A stretch of DNA of 64,000 bases from Ruditapes philippinarum. Its lineage: Eukaryota. Under the pieces are notes generated by a model, which was given only the letters and a program-made list of their open reading frames with translations, was not told where the DNA came from and searched no databases. The stretch covers positions 186,001 through 250,000 of the forward strand of contig NW_026862005.1 of the NCBI RefSeq assembly GCF_026571515.1. The letters are read 5' to 3'. Numbering within the stretch: position 1 is the stretch's first letter; the number at the start of each line of letters is the position of its first letter. Below, in pieces: positions 6,064-60,338 of the stretch. A program made the translations under genes and the position numbers.

Positions 6064-7806
6064 TTAGGAGTTAATTACATTGTATACTTTTATACAATTC
6101 GCACCGTTAAAACTAACGTACAATTTGGACATCGAAACGGAAAAATGTACATTGCGTGGTTCATACTCGTTGTATTCCAACAAAACCTTTTTGTCCGTAT
6201 TTTTAGTGTCATCGGTATGATAAACATGTATACTACCAGTTCCAGATTCACAGACATAAATGAAGCCGTCCTCATCAGTTGTTATTCCTAAAGGATGCCA
6301 GATGCGAGGCGAATACTGCTATATATCTAAAGTGTCAATGTCCACTTTGTAAAATTTGTCCCGTAACCAATCTGTGACGTAAAAAGACTTTTCTGTTTTA
6401 TCAACATGTAAATGGCAGGGACAGTTACAAAGATACTTTCCATTATCATCCTTATCAATTGTTTGAATACCTTGTTCAGTCAAGTTCCTTATCTGAAGTT
6501 TGCCATGATAATTAGCCGTCATGGCAATTAACAACTTTTCCTCACCAATGCACGCAATATCAGAGCAACGCATACCTGTCAGTATATAACGTTTCTTGAA
6601 AACGAGCTGTTTAGCATTTGTCAGTTTCAAAAACTGAATTATACTGCGATTCTCATCATTTTCATATGATCGCACAATGGCAATCTCCGAGTCTAAAATC
6701 TTAGTAACAGCGTCAGGGCTGCTTTTCAAAGACAGGCGATCAAATAACATTTTGCTTTTTAAATTGACTAATTTCAAACAACAATTGTTATGATCAGACA
6801 TAACAAGATATTGTTCGGACAGTACACATAAATGGGATATAAAATAGTCTCTCTGATCAAAACTGTCCTTGACATTTATATCCTCAATAAAGCACGCTGT
6901 CTTTTCCCTCTCTTTGCCAAAATGTTTTTTAGCTGTAGCGATGCATCGTCCAAACTCTTTAACTCTTTTGCTCAAATCATTTGATTTCTTTTTCACTTCA
7001 CATTCAAAATCATTGTCTAACTTTGATAATTCTTTTGTTAAATCTCTTAAGATTTCATTCATTTTAGTTAAATCTTCGCCCAGCCGTTTCATTTCCAGAA
7101 AAATCGTGTACCTGCAACCTTTTGGTAATTGTTTTATTGCTTCGATTTTCTCCGATAGTCTGTCGGTTTCTCTTTGCAGCAATTGAATTTTTTCTTTCGC
7201 TTTATCTAAGCTCAACATATCTTTTGTCTTTGCTGAAAGTATTTTGTCGTCTACTTTTGTAATTTCCTCGTTGAATTGTGCAAATGTTAACTCATTTGCA
7301 CTTTGTATCGAAGATTTAGCTTCTGTTGCAAAAGCAGATAAACTCTCATATTTAATATCTTTTTTTCTTTTGAAATCTGAGAAACGTTTGGCAATATCAT
7401 CATTGAATGTCTTACAACCTTTAAGTTCCTCTGCAACTTTAGTGTTCGTAACATAATCGGGTAAATATTTCATGTTACAAGTCTCTTTGTGTAGCTCAGG
7501 TTTACAAATACAACAAACAAATTTATTGCAAGTTGTACAAAAATATTTCAAAATCTCTTTGGTGTGTGTCTTACATGTTTCCATACATATATCTTGTGGC
7601 ATGTTTTCTCCTTCCAAGGGTTTGTGAACTGGATAAAACTTCCCGTGATATTTCAAACAAGTTGTGCAAAAGTAGGTCACACATGCAGAACAGAATGCAC
7701 AGGCTATTTCATGCTGTCCTTCTCTGTGACAAGCTTCGCAGTACATTTCGAAAACGTCTTCAGAGCCCTTGCTTTCTGTTTCGCAAACTGTTGTTGATTC
7801 TGCCAT
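6064..7806 (-). pseudogene. RING-less TRIM-like B-box/coiled-coil/NHL-like propeller paralog 1 with one in-frame TAG (495 aa truncated; 580 aa if read through)
   Basis: Two Cys/His B-boxes (CEAC..CSAC..CTTC..H..H; CKTH..CTTC..CCIC..H). TAG at 6319-6321 replaces the Tyr seen in paralogs. Manual translation past it gives 84 more in-frame residues (QYSPRIWHPLGITTDEDGFIYVCESG...KVYNVINS*) ending at TAA 6064-6066. Confidence 0.85.
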
Positions 7807-8822
7807 TGTCGCTAGGAACTCGAGCCACTTTTTTTACGAATAGCTATCTAAATTTGAAGGGAATAATACAAGTGAAGAATATTTGATGTGGCATACCAGT
7901 ATATATATAACACTTACGTTCATTTATATCATACCTGGAGAATTAGCAAAAAATAGTATACGAACCACAGTTTATATACGTTTATATTGTTGTTAACCAT
8001 AAATAAAAAATATCTTAAGGCGAGACTCATAGACATTAAAAACTTTCACTAACGACTAACTTGGTTTGCATACTAACATGCATGAATAATTAAAAGCTAA
8101 TCTTAATAACTGATTAACATACCCTTTTCCTTTTGTCATTTTGCTATGACCTTGATGATTATTTGCAATAAGATAAACAGCATAAACTGTCATTGTGTGT
8201 AACCAGTTCCGTCTGAAGATCACAAAGGACACTGTAGTCTTTATCTAATTCTATGTCCAAATAATTTCTCAACCAACATTAAAAAGAGTCCCAAAATACC
8301 AATATTTCAAATACTTTCGAAATGTTAATCATTATAAATATATAGAACTTTATGAAATCAACCTTTCATAAAACGTCGCACAATTAACGATATTTGAAGT
8401 CTCATTGTTCTGATCACAATTAGCAAAAACGTAGGTAACTGTACCCAGCATATTATTTTGACAAGTGAACAGGTTTAAAAGTGTTTTTTTCCCCTTGTAT
8501 TTGTAGTTTGATATCGTTTTCTAATAATGCATTTACATGCTCAATTATACATTCAATTCAGCTATTCAAATTTTCCCAAAATACATTGGTAGTGTTTGGT
8601 TATCTACGTAACAACTGTTGCTAGTCTCATAATCAAAAGGATAACGATCGATGAAAACGAAACGTTTCATTGTGCTATCGTAACGACCGCAGCATATGTC
8701 TGTTATTGTGACGAGTACTGAAATCGTTTTAAGATTAATTCATATCCGTCACAAAACGCATATTGAATAAGATATACCTTTTCAAAATAGTTCAGAATCA
8801 ATAATGAAATGAGATATTCGTA

Positions 8823-9181: not shown

Positions 9182-9387
9182 GAAAAAATACGGTGTTGAA
9201 AGAATTTCAAGAGTGGCTTTATTATCAAAAAGCTGATCAGATATTTGAAACCTGATATCTTCATTAGATTTTTCTTATATTTAAGATTTAAGATTTGCTA
9301 ATGGGCAATAATGATATATGAGTAAGAATCCTTGAGATATAGGGTTTGTGTATTTTCCATGTATTACTTACCATTACATATATATTA

Positions 9388-9529: not shown

Positions 9530-9989
9530 TTTAAAAAACAGCAAGGAACTTTTTTTTAGAGAAAATGTCAGATTTCTTCATAAATTACAGCAGCCGTATA
9601 TTTAAAACTTTATTGACGTCACGGTTTTTTAAATGACAATATATATTGTGACCACCTATATAGTTTGTAGGATTTTAAACATAACATATCTACTTTGTGT
9701 GCAGTCATAACATGTTTATGTTATATTAATAAAGTCACTGTGTAGCAATTGCCAAGATTTTTAATAACAAATTTGAGCACAGTATATCTTTTTAATAGCT
9801 ATAATATTAACTTGACAGATGATACAGATCCAAAACCATAGTTTTGTGCATTTTCTTACCCAAATTAGACATATTCACTACTGTACAATTTTAAACAAAT
9901 CCGAAATGAGATATTTTGTACTTTCGGTTTCTACAACCATCATAATAATGTTATAAACTACTTTTATTTCTATAATATTAAAATGATTT

Positions 9990-12285
9990 AAGTGGACTTT
10001 TACTACATATATTGGAATAAACTCAACATCTCCTAGCATTCATTTTCCACTTGTTTGCATGTTTAGTTTCTTAACGTAGGTAAGACCTTTATACATAATT
10101 TGTTTTATGTATTCTTATTCTTGTGTTCGAGGTCCTTATCCAAAGTTTGGCGTAATCTGATCAATGTCTTTCTTATATACATTTTGGACTATAAAATATG
10201 TTGAAAAATCTCACAGGACTGGTTTATTTCCATGCAGCCGATGTTTACATTGGTCAAAGTTAATACACTTTCATACTTAAGTTTTCTGATGCTGCCTCAA
10301 ATCCCCGTCTCAGACAGCACGGCTTCTGTTGTGTTATTGAATCTTCAGAACAAATACTTCCATGAGGCCTATGTTTACATTGTTCAAAGTAAACCACCTT
10401 TATGTTTCATATACCTATTAATGTTTACTAAATTTTCTGTAAAAGCACCGGTTTCTGTTTTGGAATTCAATCATCTTAACAAATGGTTAGGAATAAATAA
10501 ACTCAAACAAACATAATAAGAATATCAATGAAATGTTACGGTGCTAAAAATAGGTTTAGAAATTTTATATAGAGATGAATTTTAGTTTATAATGGAGGAA
10601 AAATCTAATTGTCAGGATAAAACGGCCATTGAATGCAAAGGAAAATAACCCACGAACAATGAATACTTTTGAATCAAACAAATCTTTAAAAACTCACTTT
10701 TTTACACTTAACTAAAAGTAACTTAAAGCAAAACAAGTTTACAAAATGCACTCTTGTATAAACTGTTCTTAATTAACCAAAATATATTATTATAAGAAAT
10801 AATATTGAATTAAAGATTTGAACCCGTCAAACAAGTGCCAAAAATGTAATAATTATCTGAAAGTATGAAAAATAACCTAATTGATTCTGTGCTATTTAAC
10901 AGATAAATCTAAATAGAAGCAAGTCCTGTTTTAAAGTTATACCACCAAGAGCGAAAATCTCATAAATATAGATGACTGTCATTTTTAAAAACAAAGAGAA
11001 AATTATTGAAATAATCTTAATTACTTCGGTAAAAAGAAACAACTTAAATTTCTTACAAATTCATCAAATATTGTTCAGTGAATAAAGATAATCAATGCAA
11101 AAGTGCCTAACATAAATTCTATAGTTCTTTAATAAACATTAGAGAGCTTTTAGAGATGTTACTTCTTTATAAATTAGCAGCAGAATTACAAAAGTCCCTG
11201 AGCTTCCTGGTTAAATGAACTTCTGTACCCAGAGGGAGCTAGCATTTACATAGTGGTGGCACTGTATGTAACAACTCATCTGATTGTTCTGCATATTACA
11301 TGTACTGCTTATCAGAATTTACTCAACAAATGCTTCAGGCTTATATTTTTTACATATATATTCTAATAATAGATTATGACTCATGGAAAAGTTTAAGAAA
11401 CAACATTAACATAACATTTTCTACAAAAGATAACAATAATAGCAAAGTTCTACAAAGTTATTTATAAACACATGCAAATGCTTAATCACCAACTTCTATT
11501 CCACTAAGATTAAAGGCCAGAGTAAATAGAGATAGAACCATTTTCTATATATATTGTACATAATTATATAAAATAATCCTAAGCCATGCTCAGTGTTTCT
11601 AAAAGAATGTATCAATAAGTTCTACAATCAATACTTAGTAAAATAATCAACATTAAACTAGTGAATGATAAGACTGAAATGTCCATAAAACAATACATAT
11701 TCAATATCATTAAGTTTTAAGAATATTTACAAGTGCAAGGCAATCAAAAGGTGTCTTTTGAGTGAATATATATTACGTACTCAAAACATGAAATTGTATT
11801 CTTTATTTAAATATTGTTTCGATCGTCGTTGTGATCACACCATCATGTAAACATTATCAGCAGTGTGTTTAGGACATTTACTGTTTAATAATGTTATCTC
11901 TCTTTGATAATGTGAAAAGAGCCAGTGTCGATCCGTATTACACAAAATTAAAGTTTGCTCGCTTTACACCTTTTCAAGATAACGTTCACTTCACCTTACT
12001 GTATATCGTGACAGAGATTTTATTAGAGTTTTATCCGAAAAGGTCTTATTCTTCTAAATTCAATAATGTTTATATCTCTTTAACTGAATCATCGTGAATT
12101 TTAATTGTTACGTTCTACATGTTCTATATCAAATCGACAAATCATGGATAGAAGAAAATGGCAGTTTAATTTATAACATTTCTTTAACGTAAACAGCGGA
12201 AAGCTTTCCAATCCCGATCACACAAAGACAAATAAATACATTTAAATTCATGATCTACATTCGTTGAACTCGAAGTTTAGCAGTT
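9990..12285 (-). repeat. Shared ~2 kb 3' flank of the paralogs (further copies ~16875-18915, ~30050-33980 interrupted, ~38770-41234)
   Basis: Recurrent blocks such as gatgtttacattggtcaaag, cagcacggcttctgttg, tagcagcagaat..acaaaa, ggtggcactgtatgtaacaac and tttctacaaaagataacaat. Confidence 0.85.
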
Positions 12286-14037
12286 CTAAAAATTAATGAT
12301 ATTGTATACCTTTAGGCGATCAGCACCGTCAAAACTAACGTACAGCTTCGACAACGAAGCAGAATAAAGTAAAGCTTGTGGGCAAAAATCGTCGAACTTC
12401 AACAAAACTTGTTTGTCCGTATTTTTAGTGTCATCGGTATGATAAACATGTATACTACCAGTTCCGGATTCACAGACATAAATGAAGCCATCCTTATCAG
12501 TCGTTATACCTAAAGGATGCCAGATGCGTGGCGAATAAGAATATCCATATGAGAAGTCAATGTCCATTTTATAAATGTTGTCATTTAACCAATCTGTGAC
12601 GTAAAACTGATTTCCCATTATATCAGTATTTAAGTAATAGGGACATTGAAAGGGAGACTCTCCCTTTTCATCTATATCAAATGTGCGAATAACACGTCCA
12701 CTGAAGTCCATTATCTGAAGTTTGCCATGATAATCAGCAGTCATTGCAATTACCAACTTTTCATCACCAATGTACGCAATATCAGCACAATACATTTCTG
12801 TCAATATAAAGCGCTTCATAAAAACGAGTTGTTTAGCATTTGTCAGTTTTAAAAACTGAATTATACTACGGCTCTCGTTCTTTTCGTTCTTTTCATATAA
12901 CTGAACCATAGCAATTCTCGAGTCCGTAATCTTAGTAACACCCTCTGGAGTCCTTTTCAGAGCCAGCCGATCTAATAAATTCTTACTTTTTAAATTGACT
13001 AATTTCAGACAACAATTACTACGATCAGACAAGACAAGATATTGTTCGGACAGTTTACATAAGTCGCATATGCAACAGTCTTCCTCATCACAGATGTCCT
13101 TGACAATTATATCTTCGACAAAGTTCGCTGTCTTTTTTATCCCTTTGCCATGACATTCTTGAGATGTAGCGATGTTTGTTCCAAATTCTTTAACTCTTTT
13201 TAACAAATCATTTGTTTTCTTTCTCGCTTCATCCTTGAAGTCCTTGTCTATTTTTGACGAATCTTGTGTCAAATCTCCCAAGATTTGATTCATTTCAGTC
13301 AAATTTACGCTCAGCTGTTTTATTTTCATAAATAACGTGTACTTACGACTTTTTTGAAGTTGTTTTATTGTTTTAACGTTCTTTGATAATTGATCAGTTT
13401 CTTTTTGCAGCAATTCAAGCCTTTCCTTCGCTTTGTCAATGCTCAAAGTATCACTTTCCTTTTTTGTTTGTATTGTTTCTTCTAGTGTTGAAATTTCCTC
13501 TTCGAACTTCGCAAACATTAATTCCTTCTCCTTTTTAATTACAGTTCTCGTTTCTGCTGTATCAACAAAAATACTTTCATATCTTGTATCAATTTCCCCT
13601 GTGAAATCTGAAAGATGTTTAACAATACCATCCTTGTGTTTCATTAACCCTTTAAGTTCTTCCTCACATTTAGTGTCCGTAACGAAATCGGGGAGATAGC
13701 TCATGTTACACGTATCTTTGTGTAGCTCCGGTTTACAAATACAACAAACAAATTTATTGCAAGTAGTACAAAAATATTTTACAACCTCCTTTGTATGTGT
13801 CTCACATTTTTCCAAGCACAAATCTTGGGGCATTTTATTTCCTTCCAGGGTTTTATGAAAAGGATAAAACTTTCCATGGTATTTCAGACAAGTTGAACAG
13901 AAGTAGGTCACACAAGCAGAACAAAATGCACAGGCTATCTCATGTTGCCCTTCCCTATGACAAGCTTCGCAGTACATGTCAAAAACATCGTCAGAACCTT
14001 TGCTTTCTGCTTCCTGAATTGTTTTTGATTCCGCCAT
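12286..14037 (-). CDS. RING-less TRIM-like B-box/B-box/coiled-coil/NHL-like beta-propeller protein, paralog 2 (583 aa)
   Basis: Intact ORF; two B-boxes, heptad-rich helical middle, NHL-like blades (FQCPYYLNTD..FYVTDW; WHPLGITTDKDGFIYVCE). Confidence 0.92.
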   Translation of the reverse strand: MAESKTIQEAESKGSDDVFDMYCEACHREGQHEIACAFCSACVTYFCSTCLKYHGKFYPFHKTLEGNKMPQDLCLEKCETHTKEVVKYFCTTCNKFVCCICKPELHKDTCNMSYLPDFVTDTKCEEELKGLMKHKDGIVKHLSDFTGEIDTRYESIFVDTAETRTVIKKEKELMFAKFEEEISTLEETIQTKKESDTLSIDKAKERLELLQKETDQLSKNVKTIKQLQKSRKYTLFMKIKQLSVNLTEMNQILGDLTQDSSKIDKDFKDEARKKTNDLLKRVKEFGTNIATSQECHGKGIKKTANFVEDIIVKDICDEEDCCICDLCKLSEQYLVLSDRSNCCLKLVNLKSKNLLDRLALKRTPEGVTKITDSRIAMVQLYEKNEKNESRSIIQFLKLTNAKQLVFMKRFILTEMYCADIAYIGDEKLVIAMTADYHGKLQIMDFSGRVIRTFDIDEKGESPFQCPYYLNTDIMGNQFYVTDWLNDNIYKMDIDFSYGYSYSPRIWHPLGITTDKDGFIYVCESGTGSIHVYHTDDTKNTDKQVLLKFDDFCPQALLYSASLSKLYVSFDGADRLKVYNIINF

Positions 14038-14072
14038 CGTTACCAGGAATTCATGCGTCTTTTTCTAATAAA

Positions 14073-15459: not shown

Positions 15460-16400
15460 AAAACAGCTCCCGTTTTTTCTTGTTATAATTATAATAAAAA
15501 TTGATCTGAACGATTTATCTAGCATGTTAGAGGCTTACATCATGAAAGAGTAGTGCTGAATGTGAAAATAGTTGGCATAAAAGTAGTAAAAATAAAAATA
15601 GAATGAAATTTGACTTCAATATAAAATACTAAATCACTATAACTGTGCTTATTCCCAGAAAGCAACTCAGGCGAAATATGATTCAGTTAATTGGTAAATT
15701 AGTAAGTGTTGGAAAACTATATAAAAAACATCAAATATAAACAACTTTTTAGAAACAAAATACAAACCTTTATTGGTCATGATCCGATTTCAAAACTTCA
15801 TAGACAGGTTTCACCAAAGGCGAACTATGTCTGTACATGTCTACTGATAAGAATATTAAATCGTAACTTGATAAAAGAAATTACCTTTACATGCTGTGAT
15901 ATCTTTCAATGTCGTTCATAACTATTTACACAGGATATGTACATGTCCAAATGTTGAACAGTAAAAACGTTATGTCGTTGAAGAGAACATGTCCGGTGTG
16001 GATCAGTACATTACTGATAAGGCCTTTATCTGATTAAAACCCCACATCATAACTCCGCAAAAATTCAAAGTTTGTATTTAAATTTTCTGTCGGAATTAAA
16101 AAACCATTACTGGGATAAACATAAGTCCAGTCAGTTAAATTTTCACGTGACAGATAATTTAAAAATGCAGTAAATTTATAACGAAACGAAATCAATGACA
16201 TTTCATCTGATAAACTATATCAAAGGGTTTTAAAAGTAACAGCAGTTTTGTAACCGTCTAGTATGATCTTCCCACAATGCACCAGCTATTTACTGTTGCA
16301 ATCGTAACTTCTCGGCTTTCTCCGGCGACTTCGTCGGGGTGTACCGATTGCTTTCGAGAAATGTTAAAGTTTATGGTTTATGATAATGTGATAAATTGTT
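15460..16400. repeat. Paralogous intergenic block (copies ~27090-28150, ~37425-38470, degenerate ~44190-44750)
   Basis: Shared strings cagctcccgtttt, gtagtgctgaatgtgaaa, caggcgaaatatga, cccacaatgcaccagctatt and gtcggggtgtaccgattgct. Confidence 0.85.
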
Positions 16401-16411
16401 ATATAGAAGAT

Positions 16412-16561: not shown

Positions 16562-18915
16562 TTTCATTTTTATTATATGCAAAGAAACGTTTTAAAAAGA
16601 TACTAAACCTAATACTGAATGAAAAGCGCGCCAAATAATAATACAACGTGACGTGATTTACACATTATAGGTAAACATAGTGTCATTCAAAAAATTATCT
16701 GGCAGGATCAAATTCCTTGACAGATGATGCAGCTCCAAAAACATAGTAAGTGCTTTTTCTTACTCAAATTAGACATATTCAGTAATGTACAATTTTAAAC
16801 AAATCCGAATAAAGACATTTTGTTTTTTCGGTTTCTACAACCAACTACTTTATATATAAATAATATTATATAATTTAGGCAGACTTTTACTCTATATATT
16901 GGAATAAACCTAGTCAACACAAATATGATAAACAAGATCAACAACGAAAGGCGGCGTTCAATGAACGCAACCCAAATATAATTTTATATCTCTCAGCAAT
17001 CTCTTACTATTTGTTTGCATGTTTAGTTTCTTAGCGGAGATAAGGCCGTAATACAGAATTCGTTCTATGTATTCTTACTATTGTGTTCGAGGTCCTTATT
17101 CAAAGTATGAAGGAAGGGGCCGAAAAGATGCGATTGATACATGCTCAAATACGTCTCATCAATGTCTTTCTTATATTTATGTTTTACTTTAATAATTTAT
17201 TAAAAAAGCTCACAGTACTGTTTTTTCCAGGTATTCCAAGAAGCCGATGTTTACATTGGTCAAAGTTTATACACCTTCATACTCCAGTTTTTTATGGCTC
17301 TGTTCCTCACTGGCTAAGATCACCATCTCAGGCAGCACGGCTTCTGTTGTCAGAACAAACTTCCACGAGGTCTATGTTTACATTCAACCTACATACTTAA
17401 TTTTTTTTTTACCATATGTATTTAACCAAAATATATTTAGAAATAATATTAAATAAAAGATTTAAATCCGTTGAAACCAAGTGTCAAACAATCATCTGGA
17501 AGTATGAAAAATAATCTTAAATTCCATGCAGCAAGCCATGTTTCAAAGTTTTACTAACAAGTATGAAAATCTAACAGTAATAGATGGCTGCCACTTTTAA
17601 AAACAAAGAAAAGATATTAATCGATCTTAATTACCCCGGTACAAAGAAATTACTAAAATTACTTACAAATTTATCAAAAAATGGTTCAGTGAATTTACAT
17701 AATCTTTAAGTTTAATTTAATGGCAAAGTGCCTAAAATAAATTCTTTAAATGATTAATAAACATTAGATGTTGCTTCTTTATAAATTAGCAGCAGAATAA
17801 CAAAACTCTCGAGATGACTGGTTAAATGAACTTCTGCATCCGTGAGGGTGCTAGCATTTACATACAGGTGGCACTGTATGTAACAACACATCTGATTGGT
17901 CTGAAAATTTCTGCTTACATGAATTTACCTAACAAATGCTTTAGGCTTATAATTTCTTTGCATAACTATTCTAATAATATATTGTGATTCATGGAAAAGA
18001 TTTAAAAAAAACATTAACATTTTCTACAAAAGATAACAATAACAAAGTTCTACAAAGTTATTAAAAGAATAAAAATACCACTAAGAAACTAAATATATTT
18101 ATAAACATATGCGAATGCTTAATCAACAACTTATATTCCACTCAGTTTAAAGGCCAGAGTATGTGGAAGTAGAACCATTTTCTATATATATATTATACAT
18201 TACTATATAAAATAATCTTAAGCCATGGTAAGCGTCTCTAAAAGAATGTTCTAAAAGTTCTACAAGGTTGCTTAATATAGTCAAACTTAGTAAAATAATC
18301 AACATAAAATAGTAAATGATAAGAATGAAATATCCATAAAACAATACATATTCACTATCATTAATTTTTTTAGAATATTTACAAGTTTTAGTCAATCAAA
18401 AAGGTGACTTTTGAATGAATATGTATTACGCACTCAAAACATAAAGTTGTATTCTTTAAATGTTGTTTCGATCATCGTTGTGATCACGTGCACACCCTCA
18501 TGTAAATATTATCAGCAGTGTGTTAAGGACAGTAACTGTTTAATAATGTTATCTCCCTTTGATTCTGTGAAAAGAGCCAGTGTCGATCCGTATTTCACAT
18601 ACGTTTGCCCGCGTTATACCTTTTCAAGATAACTATCACTTAACCTACTGTATATGATGACATAGATTTCATAGGTGGTTTTATCCGCATAGGTCTTATT
18701 CTTAAAATAATGTGTTTATCTCTTTAATTGAATCATCACCAATTTCATCTGTTACGTTCTATATCAAATCGACACATCATGGGTAGAACAAACTGGCAGT
18801 TTAAACATTTCTTTAACGTAGACAGCGGATAACTTTCTCATCCTCGATGACACAAAGTCAAATAAATATATGTAAATTCATGATCAACATTCGTCGAACT
18901 CGAAGTTTAGCAGTT

Positions 18916-47661: not shown

Positions 47662-49731
47662 TCATGTAATTTTAAACACTTTGATTGCATCATAACCTGT
47701 CTGGCCAACGTACAACTTCTTCTCGGCTGAGCTGAAGCAAATGCCAGATGGATTCCAATAGTTTGGACGTGTTTGCAATAACGCAACCTTCTCGGATTCG
47801 TCACGGTGTGGATGAAAGTAGACTATTTTCCCAGAACCAGCTTCAATGATGTACAAAAATCCCTCATCATCAATTGTTATACCTTCTGGGTGCCACATAT
47901 AGGCCACTGGTCTGGTTTTATAACTTCGGAGATCAATTTCAATTACCTTGTCTCTATACCAGTCACTAACATATGCATACGTTTCATTGTCGTTTACCGT
48001 TATACAGTATGGATTTTTGAATATGTCTTCTTCATCACTGTCTGTTTCAATATTAACCAATACATCACCATCCATATCAATAATTTGAACTTTTCCTTCA
48101 TTGTCCTGACACATTGAAATTATGAATCTGTCATATTTCAGGTAAACAGCAGTATAACAAGTCATTTCTGTAGTTATGTATCGCTTTTGGAATTTCAGTT
48201 TATGGAACTTCGTTAAAGTTAAAAACTGTATCTTACTGGTACACATATAACTGCCTCGGACAAAGGCAATTTGATGATCATCTATTTTTGTAACAGTTTC
48301 TGGTGCAAAGTCAACAGACCTTACGTGAACGATTTGATTAAGTTTTACATCAAATAACTTGAGCGAACAATTACTCTTATCACACAGGACAAGGAATTGT
48401 TCAGACAACAAACAGCAGTCAATTATGTTGCATTTTTCCTCATCTGTATCGGCTTCCACGTTTATATCATCCAAAGCACATGCTTTCTTTCTTTGTTTTG
48501 CCTCGGCTTCCTTTGTTACTATTAGTGGAATACTCTGTCGCAACAAAGTTCCAAAGTCTCCAACTTCTTTAGATATTCTTTTAACTTTGTCTTCTAAATC
48601 TGATTCAGGACTACAGATACTTATTTTTTCAATCCAATCTTCTGCTTTCTTAATTGTACATTTAAGCTGTTCTAATTCTATGAACACCTGATATTTTTTG
48701 TGGCCAGGAATTGATGCTAGCGTTTTGATACTTAATGACAGCTTATCGATTTTTAGAGTCAACGATTCATTTGTTTCTTTCAGAGAATCAACAATCGTGC
48801 AATCATGATTCTTGATCATCTGGATCATAGATTCAATATCCTCAGCTTGTTTGTCAAACTCTTCAAAACCACTATCCTTTTCTCGCTTAATTACACTATG
48901 TGTTTCTGAAGAAATTTTGTTCAAATGATCAAGTTTTGTAGCAACAGCTTCTTCTGTGTCTGAAACTCTGTTTCTAAATGTTTTATGATGTGAGTGTACC
49001 GATTCAAATTCTTTTTCAAAATCTTGACCTTTCAGTAAGTCGGGTAAATATTGTAGACTGCATGAATCTGTATGCAAATCTTCTTTACAAATTGTACAAA
49101 CAAAGTCTCCACACGTATCACAATGAAACTTTACTATCTCGTTGGTATGGGTTTTACATTTTTCAGAACATAAATCCAAATACATGTCGTCTCCGATTAT
49201 ATACTTATGCTTTCGCAAAAATTTCCCGTGGTGTTTAAGGCATGCTGAGCAAAAGTACGCCACGCAAGAAGTGCAGAAAGCATACGCCGACGCGTGTATT
49301 CCGTCTCTCATGCAAACTTCACAAAACATTTCAAAGATTTCATCCGAACCATTTGTTCTACTATTTCCTTCTGGCTGTGTTAAACTTTCAACTGGTTGTG
49401 TCGAACTTTCACATGGCTTTGTCGTACTTTCTGCCGACTGTTTCAAACTTCCATCTGTCTTTGTCGAACTGTCAACTGGCTGAATAAGACATACAACTGG
49501 TTGTATCGAACTTTTAACTGGCTGTGTCGAACCTTCTATTGGCTGAGTCGAACTTTCATCTAGCTGTATCAAACCTTCATCTGGCTTTGTCGAACCTTCA
49601 ATTTGCTGTGTCGAGCTTTCAGTTGCCTTTATCGAACTTTCAACTGACTGTTTAGAACTTATAATGTTTTTATTCATACCATCAATTTTATGACGATTCT
49701 CACAATCTAAGTAACTTTTACGCTCAGCCAT
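47662..49731 (-). CDS. RING-less TRIM-like B-box/coiled-coil/NHL-like propeller protein, paralog 6, with an N-terminal S/T/Q/P-rich repeat extension (689 aa)
   Basis: Intact ORF; same domains; divergent subfamily (YVSDWYR, MWHPEGITIDDEG). Confidence 0.92.
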   Translation of the reverse strand: MAERKSYLDCENRHKIDGMNKNIISSKQSVESSIKATESSTQQIEGSTKPDEGLIQLDESSTQPIEGSTQPVKSSIQPVVCLIQPVDSSTKTDGSLKQSAESTTKPCESSTQPVESLTQPEGNSRTNGSDEIFEMFCEVCMRDGIHASAYAFCTSCVAYFCSACLKHHGKFLRKHKYIIGDDMYLDLCSEKCKTHTNEIVKFHCDTCGDFVCTICKEDLHTDSCSLQYLPDLLKGQDFEKEFESVHSHHKTFRNRVSDTEEAVATKLDHLNKISSETHSVIKREKDSGFEEFDKQAEDIESMIQMIKNHDCTIVDSLKETNESLTLKIDKLSLSIKTLASIPGHKKYQVFIELEQLKCTIKKAEDWIEKISICSPESDLEDKVKRISKEVGDFGTLLRQSIPLIVTKEAEAKQRKKACALDDINVEADTDEEKCNIIDCCLLSEQFLVLCDKSNCSLKLFDVKLNQIVHVRSVDFAPETVTKIDDHQIAFVRGSYMCTSKIQFLTLTKFHKLKFQKRYITTEMTCYTAVYLKYDRFIISMCQDNEGKVQIIDMDGDVLVNIETDSDEEDIFKNPYCITVNDNETYAYVSDWYRDKVIEIDLRSYKTRPVAYMWHPEGITIDDEGFLYIIEAGSGKIVYFHPHRDESEKVALLQTRPNYWNPSGICFSSAEKKLYVGQTGYDAIKVFKIT
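49366..49659 (-). repeat. Coding minisatellite, 14 x 21 bp (7-aa consensus SSTQPVE)
   Basis: SSKQSVE SSIKATE SSTQQIE GSTKPDE GLIQLDE SSTQPIE GSTQPVK ... SSTQPVE SLTQPEG; DNA unit ~tgtcgaactttcaactggttg. Confidence 0.9.
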
Positions 49732-50590
49732 GTTTGTTAACGCGCATACTACAAAAAAGTTGATGAGATGAACAGCTTAAAAACAGTAAAAACTAATCTC
49801 TACAGAACATGACGTGCCATAAAGTATCCTTAAAGAAAAAAGAATACAAAATCTCAACTTCAAAATTTGTTTTCACAAAGCCAGCATAAACATGCGACTT
49901 ATAAAGCATTTTATTTAAAGAATTTAAAGATCGTTCTATATCCATTCGCATTCATTGAATTTTTAGCTTGTAACTACTTGTTCAAAAGCGGATCAGCAAT
50001 TTGTAATATGATATTTCCCCATAATGCATTAGCTCGTTCAATATAGATCACTAAAATTGAACGTGAACGTGAATGTAATTAAGTAGGCTAAGGCGAATTA
50101 AATTGAAATTATGGTAAGCATACACGAGTAGTGTTTCTTAAGGTGGGATATGTGATAACTGTAAATTTGAACAGTTCCTTATTTAGATTCATTATTTATG
50201 TATAAAGGATAATTTCAAAAATTCTTTTTTTTACCTTTGTTATTTTTTTTCTTCTTTTTGAGAATGATGTATACAAAAAAGAACATGTCCTTTTTCAATT
50301 GAAACTGATATATGTTCAAACATTAATAAATAAAAATGATCAAATAATAAAATGTATCATGAAAATTGATTTTACAAATAAAGAGCAGAAATTATAAATA
50401 TCATCATAATTGCAATGCAGTTCTTTAGCTTTCAATGTTCAATTTAAAGGAAACTTAGTATAATTTTTTGAATTACATAACTTTTCAATTCTTCGCACTC
50501 AGTCAAGGTTTGAATAATATTTAATGTGCCATGAACGCTCTTTTATAGCAGTTAAACAATTTTTGTAGATACGCCATCAGGATTATAGTT

Positions 50591-51101
50591 CTTTGAAGTT
50601 ACGCAGTCATTAATGCCATACACTTTTATCAAATTCAGACCGTACTGGCTGATGTATAACTAAAACAATAGCAAACAGCCAAAAGCTGTCAATAAACGGA
50701 AACGTCTGCCAGAAAAAAAACATCTGTTGATGAATTGTCATCTTCATGATGGAAAACGTGAATGCGGTTTGTACCGCATTCGCAGATGTAAATGAGTCCT
50801 TTCTTGTCAGTCGTTATTCCTTATGGTCAGGTAATTTGGACATTTTTCAGGTTTTTAACAGGTCGCCATTTGCGTTGATCTATATATCTGCCAGTACGTG
50901 ACCTGTCATGTCTAAAACTTGCACTTTACCTTGATGGTTAGCCCACATAGAAATTATGAAAGTGTCGTTATCTAGGTAAGCAATATCAGTACAATACATT
51001 TGTGTTATCATAAATCCTGTTTGGAACTCAAGAGATCTTGAGTCTGTCATTGTCAAAAATTAAATTATACTTTTCTCTTTGTCGTTGTCGTAAGGACGAA
51101 C
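50591..51101 (-). pseudogene. 3' (propeller) fragment of a paralog-8-like gene
   Basis: High identity to 58566-59190 (atctgccagtacgtgacctgtcat, gcactttaccttgatggttagcccacatagaaattatgaaagtgtcg); ~110-bp internal deletion, small indels and a CAA>TAA change; not in the ORF track. Confidence 0.9.
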
Positions 51102-51112
51102 ACGTGTAACTT

Positions 51113-51500
51113 GTAATAGAAAGAGCATCGAAACACGAGGCTATCTGATTTTTACGAGGGGGCCCAGTCCCCGAGTATTAATCGGATTGCCGAGTGTTTT
51201 GATGTTCTTTCTCTTTTGTATCATAGTCAAACATAAAAACACGTTCCCTGTTGTCACAATATGAAATCTCGGGGAAAAGAACCAATGAACGAGCATCTGA
51301 ATATGACATTTCTGTCGCTTTCCCTTTCTCTTCCGTCACAATAAGTAAACCTCAGCAAAAATGAGCCAAGCAATGGGCATGCTCTGGATTGCAGGTAACT
51401 AATAGTCCTGCAGTCCAGTTAACGCACTGTGCATGTATATGTATACGATTTAACTCTGACACATTTGCATCAGAAAGGTCCCCAAACTATGATACAAATA
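51113..51500 (+). mobile_element. Non-autonomous element with a terminal long hairpin and a short asymmetric inverted repeat (Crypton-like?), family 3
   Basis: Hairpin 51118-51212 with two CGAG/CGAG mismatch pairs; tttgtatcatagt (~51215-51227) is inverted at actatgatacaaa (51486-51498); sits at the truncation point of the pseudogene fragment. Confidence 0.65.
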
Positions 51501-52510: not shown

Positions 52511-53710
52511 ATGTGTCAAGCTTAGTTTTGTGGAGAATCTCTGGTATTTTTGATACTCTTCCTATGACGTTATTCGGGATATCTGTATGCATATCAAAAC
52601 AAACACCGTCACTACGATGAGTTTTATTCATCAACTTTAAACACCTTGATCGTATCACGCTCTGCCTGGCCAACGTATAACTTCCTTCCGGCTGAGTTGA
52701 AGCAAATTCCAAAAGGCTCCCAATCACCAGGAAGCGTATGCAACAATATAACCTTCTCGGAATACTCACAATGTGGATGAAGGTAGAACAGTTTATTAGT
52801 ACCGGTTTCAACGACATACACAAATCCCTCTTCGTCAATTGTTATACCTTCTGGATGCCACATATAGGCCACTGCTTTGGTTTCATAACTATCGAGATCA
52901 ATTTTAATTATCTCGTTTCTATACCAGTCACTAACGTATGTGTACTTGCCTTTTGTGTCTATAGTTAAGCAGTAAGGATTTCTGAACATGCTCACTCCGT
53001 CACTATCTGTTTTAATATCAATTAAAGTTTGTCCGTCCATACTTTACCTTCATTATCAAGAGACATTTTAAAGACTTGTATCTAGATAGTTATTATTGAA
53101 GATATACTACAATGTCACAATGATAAATGACTAACTTTGACGGGTTATCTGAATCTTTTTCTTTTTTATTATAAAAACTGACATAATAGTATACAAGTTT
53201 CAAAGACATATGTCAATTCTTTTAAGATCTCCTCTTTGATTGGTACTGCTTATGCTGTGCTATTGCTACTGCCAATTTCACGTTTTATAATTTTCTCACT
53301 GCTACTTCTGTGCTACTGCTACTGCCAACTTCATGTTTTATAATTTTGTTACTGCTACTGCTCAATGCTACTGCTAACTTCCTACTGGTGATGACCACTT
53401 ATAAAAGTGAGTGTATTTTATGAAAAACTGCATCTATAGAAACTTGATCCTTAAACGTTAGGACCATAAGATAAGAATACAGAGGGCCAATTAGTGATGA
53501 CAAGACTCTACTCAGTGGACGTGTTAATGTGGTCAATACAGTTAATAGTGATATACTAGCTGATAAGCCTTACTGAAATTCAGCACGTCTCTGGGAAAAT
53601 GCGTGAACTTAAGTAAATATATGGTGGTGATTGACACGCCCCTCCTGTGACTGCTATTGCCAGTGTGATATTAAATTTTGTTCAAGATGAAACGACCATT
53701 TTCATTGGCT

Positions 53711-54169
53711 AAAATAAGTCGTGGCCACAAGATAATAACTCGTGGCCACGAGAAAATAAGTCGTGGCCTCAATATAATAAGTCGTGGCCACAAGATAATA
53801 ACTCGTGGCCACGAGATAATATCTTGAGGCCACAAGATAATATCTTGAGGCCACAAGATAATAACTCGTGGCCACGAGATAATAAGTCGTGGCCACGAGA
53901 TAATATCTTGAGGCCACGAGATAATAAGTCGTGGCCCCGAGATAATAAGTCGTGTCCACGAGATAATATCTTGAGGCCACGAGATAATAAGTCGTGGCCA
54001 CAAGATAATAACTCGTGGCCACGAGATAATATCTTGAGGCCACAAGATAATAAGTCGTGGCCACGAGATAATAAGTCGTGGCAACGAGATAATATCTTGA
54101 GGCCTCAAGATAATAAGTCGTGGCCACGAGATAAAATAAAACTGCAAATGTCACCTCTATGCCACCGTA
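53711..54169. repeat. Minisatellite of 20 x 21 bp ending in one TIR of the 15226 MITE family
   Basis: Units ataataagtcgtggccacgag / ataatatcttgaggccacgag / ataataactcgtggccacgag from 53711 to 54130, followed by atgtcacctctatgccaccgta. Confidence 0.92.
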
Positions 54170-54886
54170 GAATTGCCAAAACATTGATATCCTACTTGTT
54201 TTTAAAAATATGCGAGTGGTCGTTTTGCAGTTGTGGAATATTTGTTTAGTACTTATGTTTAATGAATAGGCAGAATAAATTTATGTCTATTTCCTTTGGA
54301 TAAGTTCCAATTAGAAATAATCGGCATGGTGTTCCGAAGTTAACAGAGCAGCACAATTTCGGAACACGGTTTACCAAATAGTTTTGTTTTGTTTTAAATA
54401 GTTTTGTTTTGTTTGTTTGTTTTCATTCATCAAACGCATGGTTCCTACTTATGCATGTTAAATAAAATTTAGTTATACTTGTATATAGTTTCTTAATCTT
54501 TTTTCAGTTATTGTTGAGTTTCTTAATTAAAAAAATCTAACTTGATAGTCCGATATGAACTTACACAGTTCGGTATACTTATGTTTTTATTTTGGTAACT
54601 TCATCAACATTTTGCATTTTAGCGAGATGCAATTAATGGTCTCTTTGGCCTCCTTTGCATCACTTAGTCATGTGTATTGTACATCGAATAGAAAAGAAAA
54701 AAAACACAATATTTAGTCGCAATCAGTGAATTACTTGAATCAAAATTAATAGGTCACCTTTTGGCAATACTATTTAATACTATTTAAGGAAATGATTGGT
54801 GACGTGTCGGGGTTGGTCCTCTCAGTGCCTGAAAGGGCGGATAGACCCTTATTTAACTAGACACATGTATCAATTTATACACTTTA
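54170..54886. repeat. Inverted copy of 46210-46883 inside the paralog 7 coding region
   Basis: Reverse-complement match; homology stops at the MITE TIR on one side and at the coding sequence on the other. Confidence 0.9.
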
Positions 54887-57800
54887 AATGTAAGCAATGG
54901 CGTAGCAAAACATTTCCGTAAGTATGGGTTTCTTTTGGAAAACGAGCTTTTTCCTGTCCGTCAGGGTTAAAAATTTGATCTTACTTCTTTTTTCATCTTC
55001 ATCATAAGCATGAACAAATGCTAATTGATTGTTGTCTATTTTTGTAACCGCTTCCGGAGCCAAACTGACCAACTTTCTGTGCACAAGTACCGGTATATTA
55101 AGTTGAACATCAATTAACTTTAGCGAACAATTATTTTTATCACAAAGGACAAGATATTGTTCAGATATCATACAACAATCAATTATGTGACACACTTTTT
55201 CATCTCCGTCAGCTTTCACATATATATCATCCAAAGCATGAGCATTCCTTTTTTGTTTTGTCTTGGCTTCGTTTTGGACCTCCAGCGAAATACTCCGCTG
55301 CAACAAACTACCAAATGCTTTAACTTCTTTACAAAAATGTTTCGCTCTGTCTTCTAGATGATATTCAGGACTGCAAGGACATATCTTGTCAATGGAATCT
55401 TCTTCTTGCTTAATTTGTTCACCTATTTGTTTTTAATCAATGAATATCTTATATTTTTTATTTTCAGGTGTTGATGTTAGATTACTTATATTTCTCGACA
55501 ATTTATCTATTTCAAGAGCTAAATGATCATGTGTATCTTTAAAAGAGTTAATTACCTTGCACTCCTGTTCTTTTGTGGTCTGAATCATATTTTCAATTTC
55601 ATTGGCCTCTTTGTCAAACTTCTCAAAAATGTTTTCTTTTTCTTGTTTGATTACACACCGTGTCTCTGTAGCAATTTTGCTCAAATGCTCGTGTTTGGTT
55701 GCAAAAGTTTCTTGAGTGTCTGACAATTTATCTGTTAGTGTCTTATAATGTGAGTGTATCAAGTTTATTTCTTTTCCAAAATTCTGATCTTTCAATAATT
55801 CAGGTAAATATTTCAGACAACATGCATCTGTATGTAAATCTTCTTTACAAATAGTACAAACGAAATTTGTACACGTGTAACAATAAAACTTAACTATCTC
55901 TTTGGTATGGGTTTTACATTTTTCAAAACATTTATCCGAATAAACGTCATCTCCCACTACATACTTGTGCTTCCGAAAAAACTTTCCATGGTGTTTAAGG
56001 CATGTTGAACAATAATATGCTATACAAGAGCCGCAAAAAGCACATGCCGTTCTATGTATTCCATCCCTCATACAAGTTTCACAGACCATTTCAAAGATTT
56101 CATCTGAATCATCAAAAGTCCTAGATACTGGCTGTGCCACACTTCCAGTTTTCAAAATAACGCCATTTTTTTGGCCGCCATTGAAATCTAAATTAAATGT
56201 AGATTCAGCCATATTTGTTAACACGTATATCACAAACTGGCTTAAAGTGTCAGATATATTTAAAACCAGTAAAAGTCTACAAAAAGATTATTTATATAGA
56301 AACGATATGGCATGAAATATCCGTAAAGAACAGCGATAATGAAAAACAAAACTTAACCCGAGAATTTCTTTTCACAATAGCTAGCATAAAACAGCGACAT
56401 GTATATTCATTGAATTCTTAATACGTTATCTCTTTTCAAATATTTGTGATATGATATCTTTTCCCACAATGCATTTTCTCGTTGCTTATATGTTTAGATA
56501 ATGATATTGGCTAAGGGGAATGAATTAGCACTGACAGTAAGCATACACGAGTAATGTTTCTTTAATTTGGGTTTATGTGGTTATTGAAAGAAAGGAGACT
56601 GTGTTTCTGGCTTTTAAAAATAAGTGACATTGCAGTCAAAACTCGTAAAAATGGTTGTTTTGCTATATTGTAGCGTCCCGTGTTGATATCAATTTAATAA
56701 CAGTTGTTGACTGTTACATGTTCTATTAACTAAGCCCGCTTTGCTATGTTGTCTGTTCATGTACTTTGGATTAATAAAAATCTGCTTTGTAACAACCTAG
56801 GCTCGAAACTTTGTTATTTCGCTGATGCAATATGTATAAAAATTTACACCACAGGCACAGATAGATGCTGTATCAAAGGCATTTATTATAAATATCTACT
56901 TTAAATGACACTTGATAATCAGATACATACGACCGCAAACCAATGCTTATCAATAAAGCACTAATATATAAATTGATGTTTGCAAGACTTGTTTACCAGG
57001 TACCAATTATAAGTCTTCAAGTTTTTATGCTTTTGATCTGATTTAGAAAGACGGATTGACGAACATCAGACGATATTCTTATGGACTCTGCAGTAAATTA
57101 AATAACGTTATGATATATCAGTGAACAAAACAAATAGCATAAGAATGTTTGATTTTAACTAAATTTATTAATGTAAGCCCTTAACAATCAACCTTGCGCA
57201 ATTGAAACACCCGACAACAACACGAAAAATATCTCGAATTTCAATATACGGCCGTGCTTACAAACATTATTATTAACATATGATTAAGATCGGGATTGGT
57301 GCTTGTGTAATAAACAATAAATAAAACGTAATAAATAATACTCAAATTTTAAAATGGAAATTGTTAAAATGTTTACATCCTTTTTAATATAATTCATCCA
57401 GGAAAATATGCAAACTATTAAGGCAGAACCTTTCCGTAAAAGGAATCTCGACTTCAGTCTTTTTACAGATATTAAATCTACTGTAAGGGTAAATTAATTA
57501 CAAGATTTAAACAAAAGTTTTTTAAAGTAAATTTTCTCGTTACTAAAATAAAATTAAATTACTTTTCAATGTTAAATAATACTTTACTCTCTTATGAACT
57601 CAGAGGTTTTCAGTTGCGGAGTCCTTGCTGCTAACGAAACTCAGCCTTTTATTCTTTTATTCGTGAATTGCTGATAGTTTGCTAACGGTTTCCTATCAAA
57701 ATTTGAAACTTGTGAGTTGCTAACAAAATACCAAGGAAAATGGCAGGAAGAGTTGCTAACACTACTATCACTGCTAACAGATAATACAATAGGAGTTAAA

Positions 57801-58565
57801 AGTCACGCAAATAAAATTGACATATCTTATACAAAAATAATTAGTATAATACACAGTAAAAATGGATCGGCAACTTATATGAAACATATTATTTCCGTAT
57901 GCATAACTTAACACTTCCATAAGAACCGTCATTTGGTAAATTAAAATTAATATGACGACGTCATCATATCTTCCATTACCAACATGGCAAACAATAAACA
58001 CGTCCGGGTTACAGGAAACAGTAAAATTTCGAATTATGCGTAAGGATACGCTATCAAAAAAAATACATTGACAATCAGTAGAATTTAGCATTTTTATAAC
58101 ATAACAATTATATTTAACTAGAAAATAAGTATAGAAAGGCTAATTAAAAAGTAAAATGCGGTGCATCAAAATGTACTATTATTAAAATACAAAGTTTCTT
58201 CTTCTTTCTCTCTATTTCTATCTTTCTCACTTTTTGAGAATGAGAACAAAACCATGTTCTTGTTGTGAAACTATTGAATTGGTATATATTCATACACGCA
58301 TAAACAAGAATTATCACATAATACATGTATATACATTTTGTTAAAAACATTGATTACAACTTTAAAGCGTGGATATGATTACGCGGCACATTTCTAAAGT
58401 TTTCATCTATTGTTTGTTTTAATGTCTCAGGAATTTAGGTAGGATATTTGAAATTCTCTAACTTTCTTTTTCTTCTACACACACTTTTTTTTTATTATTT
58501 ACGCTATGGGAACTCTTCTACAGCAGTTTTCAATTACCCACAGACATACGGTCATGTTTTCAGTT

Positions 58566-60338
58566 CTATAAAGTTACGCAATCATTAATTTCATACACTT
58601 TTATAAAGTTCAGACCGTACTGGCTTACGTACAACTTTCTATCTGACAAAGAATAGCAAACAGCCAAAGGCTGCCAATTAGCAGAAGTGTCTTCCAGTAA
58701 AACATCTGGAGGTGAAATGTTATCTTCGGGATGGAAAACGTGAATGCGGTTTGTACCGTTTTCGCAGATGTAAAGGAGTCCTTCCTTGTCAGTCGATATT
58801 CCTTCTGGGTGCCAAAACCGATGGCGTAACTCCTTGACTGCTCGGTTTTCCAAATTTATGGCGGTAATGCAATTACGGTACCAGTCCGACACATACAACA
58901 TTGTACCGTCGGAATTTATGGTAAGGTAGTTTGGACATTTGAACAGTTTTTCGCCTTTTGTGTTGTTCTCAATATCTGCCAGTACGTGACCTGTCATATC
59001 TACAATTTGCACTTTACCTTGATGGTTAGCCCACATAGAAATTATGAAAGTGTCGTTATCGTGGTAAACAATATTAGTACAATACATTTGTGTTATCATA
59101 AACCCTGTCTGGAACTCAAGAGATCTTGAGTCTGTCACTGTCAAAAATTGAATTATACTTTTCTCTTTGTCGTTGTCGCATGGGTGAACAAGGGCAAATT
59201 CCGTGTCGGTGACCTTTGCGGCAGCTTCGGGGACAGTTCTGATTCTTCGTACATATATTACCTTTCCAATTTTTGTATCGATGAGTTTCACCGAGGAATT
59301 CGTTTTGTCACAGGCTATAAGATACTGCTCGGACAATAAACAGCAGTCGCCAATGTGACAAGAACCGTTGTCGAATAATGAACTAACGTTGATATCACAT
59401 ACAAAGCGTGCGACTTTTCGTTTTGGTTCTACTATTATTTTTTTCTTATGTATATTAAACTCCCGGGCGTTTTTGCCAAAATGAACGACTCTTTCCTTTA
59501 AGTCATTTGCATGTTTCTGCAACTCATTCCTAAAAGAATTGTCTTTGGTGGTATGTTTTGTTAAAATGTCAATGTCTTTTACAATTTCCGTTAGCTTTGG
59601 ACTTATATCCTTCATTTTGATAAACAGTTTGTACTTTTCTTTTGTTGGTGATGAAGAAATCTGAGAAATACCATGGTCAAGGCATCCGATTTCTTGGCTT
59701 AAAGATACAATTTTATCTCTCACATATTTTTTCATCTCTTCGTTAGATTTAATCACTGAACGTGCTCCCTCCTCAATTTGTTCAGCTTCCTTCTCAAACT
59801 CTTCGAACAATGAATCCTTTTCCTTTTTTATTCCGATTTTCAAATTAGTGCTTATTTTGTCGATCTGCTCTTGTTGAGGTTTGCTTTTTATATCAATATC
59901 GGCCATTTTCCTTGAAATCTCATTCCATTCAGATATAAGTTGCTTTAATTCGTTGCCTTTTTCTAAATCTTTGACAATATCCGGTAAATATTTTAAATCA
60001 CAAGTGCCCTTATGGTCATTCCTTTTGCAAGTAGAGCATACAAATGTGTCACACGTTAAACATTGAAACTTCAGAATTTCTTTGGAATGAATTGGACATT
60101 TTTCAGTACAAACATTCTTGTGGTATGCTATCCCCAAACAAGCAAATATGTTCCGGTAGGAACTTCCCATGTAGTCCAAGCATGTGGAGCAAAGATATGA
60201 AATGCAAACCGTGCAAAAAGCCGACGCAATAGCGTGTTTTCCATCTCTATAACATGTTTCACAATACATCTCGAAGACTTCGTCAGACCCCAATTCGCTT
60301 GGACCCAAAAAGGTTAAAGGTTCCTCTTTCTCAGACAT
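58566..60338 (-). CDS. RING-less TRIM-like B-box/coiled-coil/NHL-like propeller protein, paralog 8 (590 aa; third subfamily) with a compensated frameshift in B-box1
   Basis: Open ORF with the same architecture (LYVSDWYR, FWHPEGISTDKEG); strong acceptor ttcttttgtatttgcAG near 60420; about 19 codons at 60115-60172 read in a shifted frame. Confidence 0.85.
   Translation of the reverse strand: MSEKEEPLTFLGPSELGSDEVFEMYCETCYRDGKHAIASAFCTVCISYLCSTCLDYMGSSYRNIFACLGIAYHKNVCTEKCPIHSKEILKFQCLTCDTFVCSTCKRNDHKGTCDLKYLPDIVKDLEKGNELKQLISEWNEISRKMADIDIKSKPQQEQIDKISTNLKIGIKKEKDSLFEEFEKEAEQIEEGARSVIKSNEEMKKYVRDKIVSLSQEIGCLDHGISQISSSPTKEKYKLFIKMKDISPKLTEIVKDIDILTKHTTKDNSFRNELQKHANDLKERVVHFGKNAREFNIHKKKIIVEPKRKVARFVCDINVSSLFDNGSCHIGDCCLLSEQYLIACDKTNSSVKLIDTKIGKVIYVRRIRTVPEAAAKVTDTEFALVHPCDNDKEKSIIQFLTVTDSRSLEFQTGFMITQMYCTNIVYHDNDTFIISMWANHQGKVQIVDMTGHVLADIENNTKGEKLFKCPNYLTINSDGTMLYVSDWYRNCITAINLENRAVKELRHRFWHPEGISTDKEGLLYICENGTNRIHVFHPEDNISPPDVLLEDTSANWQPLAVCYSLSDRKLYVSQYGLNFIKVYEINDCVTL

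Follow-up and report, generated by a model that had tools for sequence, protein, structure and literature searches.

The clam Ruditapes philippinarum carries, in a 64,000-nucleotide stretch of its genome (assembly GCF_026571515.1, contig NW_026862005.1, positions 186,001 to 250,000; hereafter the window, numbered from its first nucleotide), an array of TRIM-like genes whose products combine two B-boxes, a coiled coil and a six-bladed NHL propeller and have no RING domain. RBCC proteins that lack a RING cannot ligate ubiquitin alone. We consider the chances about even that the proteins of this array act as dimeric, non-catalytic adaptors or decoys in ubiquitin-linked immune or stress pathways.

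Six-frame translation revealed, on the minus strand, six long open frames with the same cysteine-rich start. When these six copies were used as tblastn queries, exactly ten homologous loci were found in the window, all on the minus strand between positions 6064 and 60338 (Table 1). Five genes are intact (g2 to g6), while g8, whose frame is open, g1, g7 and two relics are damaged. Identity is 62–83% among g1 to g5, 59% between g6 and g7, and 35–41% between groups; a tree supports g1–g5 and g6/g7 at 100/100 each, and relic B matches g8 with 88% and 81% DNA identity over two pieces. An earlier note on this DNA had described ten related loci on one strand in three subfamilies (1–5, 6–7, and 8 with a relic), and both descriptions hold. 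Its further statement that the copies span every stage from intact to relic is largely correct, in that intact, stop-bearing, broken and relic copies all occur, but g8 is not fully intact. Two compensating indels at about 60114–60176 leave about 20 codons of this gene in a shifted frame and remove both histidine ligands of B-box1, whose conserved sequence is still readable in another frame. At the position of the g1 stop, a near copy from a metagenome (P0008, 580 aa; 94.5% identical, with 32 differences in 580 residues) has tyrosine. The g1 stop and the g8 indels may be real alleles or assembly errors. A RefSeq protein of R. philippinarum, LOC132717620 (P0164), is 86% identical to g8 and is located outside the window, and the array most likely extends past the window edges.

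Each gene has the layout B-box1, B-box2, coiled coil and six-bladed NHL propeller. Pfam sees these domains weakly, with zf-B_box E values of 1.6e-5 to 0.02 in seven copies. A 97-sequence profile matches the B-box1–B-box2–coiled-coil region of TRIM28 (E 8.5e-27) and the NHL domains of Thin, TRIM2, TRIM3, TRIM71 and Brat (E 4e-27 to 4e-18). Apart from the two histidines missing from g8, the B-box ligands are complete in g1 to g7. In g6, a 21-nt unit repeated about 14 times in frame (49371–49660) adds a 7-residue repeat rich in Ser, Thr, Gln and Pro to the N-terminus.

An AlphaFold2 model of g3 (predicted local distance difference test [pLDDT] 87.6, predicted template modelling score [pTM] 0.55) places the B-boxes, as two zinc-finger lobes, at residues 23–114, the coiled coil at 121–298, and the propeller, with 24 strands in six blades, at 302–579. 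The coiled coil is modelled as a 105-residue helix (121–225) followed by return helices. Because it ends at residue 298 and the propeller starts at residue 302, there is no room for a filamin domain. Whole-model Foldseek comparisons were swamped by G-beta propellers and were set aside in favour of re-alignment. The best structural match of the propeller is the NHL domain of Lin41/TRIM71 (Z 29.0, root-mean-square deviation 2.9 Å, 258 aligned residues, 15% identity), and Pizza, Thin and TRIM2 are equivalent to it within 1 Z. The C-terminal domain is an NHL propeller rather than a B30.2/PRY-SPRY domain, and together the profile matches and the model bear out the RING-less TRIM-NHL layout proposed earlier.

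Two copies of residues 17–298 fold as an antiparallel dimer with a score of 0.58, versus 0.00 for the best control. The models agree in at least 61% of contacts between runs, have a pLDDT of at least 74, and contain antiparallel contacts such as 210–142 and 217–135. In a calibration with eukaryotic proteins, 17 of 29 solved pairs (7 of 16 from animals) and none of 30 single chains reached the mark. The earlier suggestion that these proteins oligomerize through the B-box and coiled coil thereby gains a predicted antiparallel dimerization through the coiled coil, although this pass may be a memory of solved TRIM coiled coils.

No full RING pattern is present in the six frames of the 64 kb, where a single half-pattern was seen, on the plus strand. 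Likewise, none of the 66 cysteine-containing minus-strand open reading frames (ORFs) outside the genes (drawn from 210 ORFs of at least 38 aa) matches a RING family. Five of the 66 gave Pfam matches (E 0.004–0.05), all below the cut-off, and these were rejected as chance. Upstream of g2, g3, g4 and g5 is a conserved block that ends in an invariant splice donor. This block has stops in every frame and frame-breaking length differences between copies, and in none of 15 donor–acceptor pairings does the frame stay open for more than 35 codons ahead of the ATG, nor is this stretch cysteine-rich. Thus the spliced upstream exon that might have supplied a RING to g2–g5 is non-coding. No comparable donor was found for g1, g6, g7 or g8. 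Each copy does have a single coding exon, as had been proposed, but g2 to g5 are not intronless.

The absence of a RING extends to the relatives of the array. RefSeq models of Mercenaria and clam relatives begin at the B-box. A search of 1.84 billion representatives yielded 1,176 matches at E ≤0.001 and 366 at 1e-10 (clusters at 50% identity). Among the 150 matches listed, 117 have the B-box1 pattern, 108 of them within 60 aa of the start methionine, and in none of the 117 does a RING pattern precede it. Of the 150, 145 were scanned with Pfam (two window proteins, P0006, P0007 and one unrelated 4,911-aa repeat protein were left out), and no RING family was among the families listed, which for one half of the scan were 25 of 30. 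The claim that the family has no RING is therefore sustained in the window, in the upstream exon and in 145 scanned relatives. The ESM Atlas gives Mollusca B-box/NHL proteins as its best clusters, and RING families occur in 40–81% of the members in three of the nine rows listed; such RING-bearing look-alike clusters occur in molluscs and echinoderms. RING-bearing kin therefore exist. Of the earlier proposal that an E3 ubiquitin ligase is needed in trans, what stands is that RING-bearing kin that could act in trans occur in molluscs.

The closest named proteins are those of the Mercenaria mercenaria genes LOC123536139 (44% identity), LOC123536138 and LOC128550288, which are arranged in tandem on one 73.5-Mb sequence; identities to the Mercenaria genes are 40–53%. 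In a midpoint-rooted tree of 37 proteins, all members of the mollusc family, the window copies group with these three genes and three unnamed proteins in a single clade (100/100), within which g8 pairs with LOC123536138 (100/99) and g1–g5 branch off together on a separate long stem. The cluster therefore predates the divergence of the two clams and radiated locally afterwards. The view of the family as lineage-expanded holds for g1–g5, which form their own radiation. The array itself is not special to the clam genome: it is one ordinary example of a very large mollusc family, whose members number in the hundreds to thousands.

Several Mercenaria kin join the same B-box/coiled-coil head to other parts: an interferon-inducible GTPase (IRG; XP_053391702, E 1.7e-37), an RNF213-like part (XP_053396015), a DUSP–ubiquitin-like module (DUSP-UBL; XP_053390830) and a UBA domain (XP_053386589). 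Head fusions of these kinds, in which the new part replaces the propeller, account for 4 of the 145 scanned relatives (P0052, P0093, P0037 and P0111). No longer fused forms (1207–3445 aa) were found in 2,786 candidates, which is weak evidence. In P0083, a long, unassigned N-terminal part precedes B-box2. Our literature search, supplements aside, found no paper that defines a RING-less mollusc B-box/coiled-coil/NHL family. B-box and TRIM genes go unmentioned in the main text of the Mercenaria genome paper and of two papers on presence/absence variation in Mytilus, although the supplements may list them. Passages of PMC8382680 report a B-box orthogroup, OG708, that is expanded in bivalves and may correspond to the clam family.

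Turnover within the array can be traced through synonymous divergence (dS), which is 0.22 between g2 and g4 and 0.23 between g3 and g5, versus 0.54–0.61 for the remaining pairs among g1–g5. In addition, the DNA between the genes runs collinearly in the g3-to-g1 and g5-to-relic A intervals. The series g3-g2-g1 and g5-g4-relic A are thus two copies of a three-gene block of 20–22 kb, produced by one duplication. Gene conversion was significant after correction in two of ten pairs when all sites were used and in none of ten on third positions, suggesting that it is limited to short tracts at most. The birth-and-death turnover proposed earlier is thus supported by the intact, stopped, indel-damaged and relic copies together with the block duplication.

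Evidence for expression comes from reads placed on positions 5900–25800, in runs that carry no treatment labels. Fourteen presumed RNA runs from five studies, none on record as RNA, contain 25–44% of the words of 12000–21500. One of these, X1, is RNA by a guess. At depths of about 15–55 it spans g2 plus 2.7 kb of 3′ sequence and g3 plus 1.4 kb, whereas g1 is not covered. The depth of X1 is 1–2 in 21172–22499 and 24492–25800, both of which are covered at about 110 by contigs of the DNA-like run X15. This is the pattern of spliced transcripts, and if X1 is RNA, at least g2 and g3 are expressed. A lack of expression, which the earlier note had named as telling against its proposal, is thus unlikely for these two copies. 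The X1-covered 3′ sequence of g2 (9549–12285) measures at least 2.7 kb, long for fast-turnover genes, and is 71–76% conserved behind other copies.

Two further runs, X23 and X24, are labeled as RNA-seq, a label that we rejected. They are Hi-C-like: 92% of placed reads continue into unrelated sequence. The main loose ends coincide with GATC sites and resume with GATC, as ligation junctions do. For this reason their near-zero depth on g2 and g3 was not used as evidence on expression. At 95% likeness, X15 covers g3 at 165–236 and the middle of g1 and g2 at 6–31, while X23/X24 cover g1 at about 2 and g2/g3 at 0–0.5. Across 6564–14531, different runs cover different copies (X15 g3; X23/X24 g1; X1 g2 and g3). 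This hints at presence/absence or diverged haplotypes among the copies, although dips in depth alone are no finding. Presence/absence variation is described as massive in mussels in passages of PMC7653742.

The mode of evolution of the living copies was assessed by codon models applied to the five paralogues g1–g5 (F3x4, fixed tree, g1 stop treated as missing); g6, g7 and g8 were excluded because their dS is saturated. The ratio of non-synonymous to synonymous rates (dN/dS) is 0.40 overall, 0.13 in the B-boxes, 0.38 in the propeller and 0.66 in the coiled coil, the fastest region. None of the tests for positive selection (M1a/M2a, M7/M8 and M8a/M8) reached significance in g1–g5, whether for the gene as a whole, for the propeller (p 1.0, 0.72 and 0.39, respectively) or for the coiled coil (p 0.80, 0.74 and 0.22). 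In simulations of selection of finTRIM strength on the same tree (282 codons, 20 data sets each), selection was detected in all 20 sets with 10% of sites at a dN/dS of 5, in 16 of 20 with 5% at 5, in all 20 with 10% at 3, and in none of the 20 null sets. Loops of the top face (b–c and d–a, defined as in the relevant part of PMC4015489) have a dN/dS of 0.46, versus 0.36 in the core (p=0.11), and lie below 1 (p=4e-10). Mapping rates onto the propeller, as the earlier note had suggested, thus gives a ligand face that is not faster than the core.

These values contradict the earlier picture of a diversified receptor repertoire like TRIM5 or the finTRIMs: the living recent copies evolve under purifying selection, unlike a finTRIM repertoire, although older adaptive divergence may have occurred between the subfamilies, whose synonymous sites are saturated. 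We therefore regard as unlikely the explanation that the proteins are diversified intracellular sensors, in which each propeller would recognize another pathogen ligand and variety would be maintained by balancing selection, turnover and presence/absence. The birth-and-death pattern, the family-wide variability at top-face positions flanking the blade prolines, the immune effector fusions in kin and the hints from uneven X15 and X23/X24 depth are what one might expect of such sensors. Nevertheless, every site test is non-significant despite the simulated power and the top loops are not faster than the core, whereas a binding domain under strong positive selection is a defining feature of finTRIMs (PMC2657112).

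Just as improbable in our view is a redundant housekeeping or tissue-specific scaffold, a cytoskeletal or developmental adaptor with no immune role whose copies drift by the tandem duplication common in bivalves. Drosophila Wech is an example of such an adaptor. Uniform moderate purifying selection, a relaxed coiled coil, damage to half of the loci, the orthologous cluster kept in Mercenaria and the one block duplication that accounts for most of g1–g5 would all agree with this explanation. However, copies with 62–66% identity remain intact, and their promoters remain conserved, at a dS of about 0.6, suggesting distinct functions that are kept, and the immune and ubiquitin fusions in kin also argue against it. 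Those fusions would find a place in a more doubtful scheme, a ligase-free immune platform of bivalves. Here hundreds of RING-less NHL copies would sense, other heads would carry the IRG GTPase, RNF213-like, DUSP-UBL and UBA effectors, coiled-coil pairing would combine both in trans, and individuals would differ in the copies they own.

The charge of the propeller bears on whether these proteins might instead be Brat-like translational regulators that bind mRNA. They have the domain order of Brat, and their nearest solved folds are RNA-binding NHL domains. However, lysines plus arginines minus acidic residues in the top loops amount to −6, −14, −13, −9, −12 and −16 for g1 to g6 and −1 for g8, and only 1–5 of the 88 loop residues are arginines, whereas the RNA-binding top faces of Brat and TRIM71 are described as electropositive (passages of PMC4015489 and PMC9634614). 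A protein ligand therefore seems likelier than RNA. Since identity to RNA-binding NHL domains is also a mere 12–17%, we judge this role quite improbable. Least credible of all, and largely refuted, is that the genes encode ordinary TRIM E3 ligases with a RING on a spliced upstream exon: such an exon does exist in g2–g5 and look-alike clusters do bear RINGs, but the exon is closed in all frames, the window holds no RING and the models of relatives start at the B-box.

The adaptor or decoy role is consistent with reports, in parts of PMC11992055, that RING-less or ligase-dead TRIMs act through the B-box and coiled coil and regulate active paralogues. In addition, passages of PMC9892467 describe 79 TRIM-annotated transcripts in a Perkinsus-tolerance module of oysters. 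Copies are born by unequal crossing-over, as in the single duplication of the 20–22 kb three-gene block, and die through stops, deletions and repeat insertion, with survivors held under purifying selection. A mechanism can be proposed as follows. An antiparallel TRIM-type coiled-coil dimer would present two propellers and two B-box heads per unit. The acidic top face of the propeller would bind a protein, not RNA, and the adaptor or decoy would either deliver that protein to ubiquitin machinery acting in trans, such as RING-bearing TRIM-NHL kin, or compete with this machinery. The most likely setting would be the immune or stress network in which bivalve ‘TRIM2/3/45/71-like’ transcripts recur. 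Among recent copies, copy number and expression would vary, rather than hypervariable binding loops.

Several points weigh against this proposal. Expression is drawn from one presumed RNA run, and the joint of exon 1 and exon 2 is not among the joints listed. Top-face charge is a count of residues on modelled loops and not an electrostatic calculation. The fusion kin are single gene models from another species, 22–32% identical and possibly mis-joined. Finally, in the passages of PMC9892467 that concern them, the oyster transcripts are not shown to be RING-less or to belong to the clam subfamily.

Table 1. Loci of the array and associated features in the 64,000-nucleotide window
Feature	Position	Strand	Description
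g1	6064..7806	-	B-box1/2-coiled coil-NHL gene; premature TAG at codon 496 (6319-6321)
g2 3′ region	9549..12285	-	X1 contigs cover it unbroken; probable 3′ untranslated region (UTR); conserved downstream of g5
g2	12286..14037	-	intact, 583 aa; X1 depth about 45-55
g2 first exon	15885..16224	-	putative non-coding first exon and promoter; donor after 15885; 5′ limit approximate; X1 depth 34 at 15995
g3 3′ region	17505..18915	-	covered in X1; probable 3′ UTR
g3	18916..20658	-	intact, 580 aa; chosen for structure modelling
First-exon block copy	27626..27947	-	probably of g3; donor after 27626; intron of about 7 kb containing repeats
Relic A	28235..28406	-	5′ fragment with frameshift, about codons 1-56; positional counterpart of g1
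g4	34304..36046	-	intact, 580 aa; block duplicate of g2 (dS 0.22)
g4 first exon	37966..38296	-	putative, non-coding; donor after 37966
g5	41235..42974	-	intact, 579 aa (588 if upstream Met used); block duplicate of g3 (dS 0.23)
g5 first exon	44280..44640	-	putative, non-coding; donor after 44280
g6	47662..49731	-	intact, 689 aa; N-terminal in-frame tandem repeat at 49371-49660
Relic B	50587..51263	-	3′ (propeller) fragment of g8-like gene; deletions and frameshifts
g7	52624..56212	-	g6-type pseudogene; stop at codon 260 (55433-55435), 1.8-kb insertion, frame change right after insertion
Insertion in g7	53044..54886	.	contains 21-nt tandem array 53713-54134 and 720 bp repeated inverted at 46205-46884 (85%)
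g8	58566..60338	-	open frame of 590 aa; orthologue of Mercenaria LOC123536138

Repeats are also present elsewhere in the window. The insertion in g7 is a repeat element, and its tandem array (53713–54134) shares a partly palindromic 21-nt unit with 15262–15367 in the g2 intron. This unit has very high X15 depth, indicating a genome-wide repeat. High-copy repeats with an X15 depth of 10^5 occupy 22500–24491 and 15860–17187. An X15 contig that links 22841 to 24312 suggests that the g3 intron is polymorphic for an insertion of 1.5 kb. An interspersed element is found in three copies that are 70–78% identical (26249–26922, 51503–52508 and 62907–63890), and a 118-codon open frame (52488–52841) adjoins one of them.

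Among known systems, the TRIM-NHL proteins (TRIM2, TRIM3, TRIM32/Thin, TRIM71/LIN-41 and Mei-P26; Marin subfamily C) share B-box1/2, the coiled coil and the six-bladed propeller fold with the clam copies, whose modelled dimer is likewise antiparallel. The clam copies differ in having neither a RING nor a filamin domain, in their acidic top face, and in being multicopy genes with fast turnover, whereas TRIM-NHL genes are few and conserved. With Brat and Wech, listed as TRIM-like and RING-less in the pertinent part of PMC3503706, they have an identical domain order without a RING. They differ from Brat, whose top face is electropositive and binds RNA, in acidity there, in an identity of 12% to the Brat NHL domain and in their expansion in molluscs. 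The finTRIM and TRIM5/TRIM22 groups resemble the array in their clustered, lineage-specific birth and death (PMC2657112), but have a RING together with a B30.2 domain that is strongly positively selected, whereas the clam proteins have no RING, an NHL propeller and no positive selection detected.

Bivalve proteins named ‘TRIM2/TRIM45/TIF1-like’ or annotated as uncharacterised B-box proteins (Mercenaria LOC123536138, LOC123536139 and LOC128550288; Ruditapes LOC132717620) belong to the same family as the array and do not differ from it in kind, g1–g5 being a younger local radiation. The TRIM and TIF1 names, assigned automatically, suggest E3 or TIF1 functions, for which the domain content gives no support. 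The locus is real, well formed and ordinary for a bivalve genome, and RING-less TRIM-like proteins were already known from Brat and Wech. Bivalve transcriptome studies list ‘TRIM-like’ genes as markers of disease tolerance and read them as E3 ligases. Our findings correct this annotation-based assumption, since at least one large class of such bivalve genes is RING-less and cannot ligate ubiquitin alone. The recent copies are not evolving like antiviral receptors, and an adaptor or decoy that would work in trans with ubiquitin machinery offers a testable model for what they may do instead.

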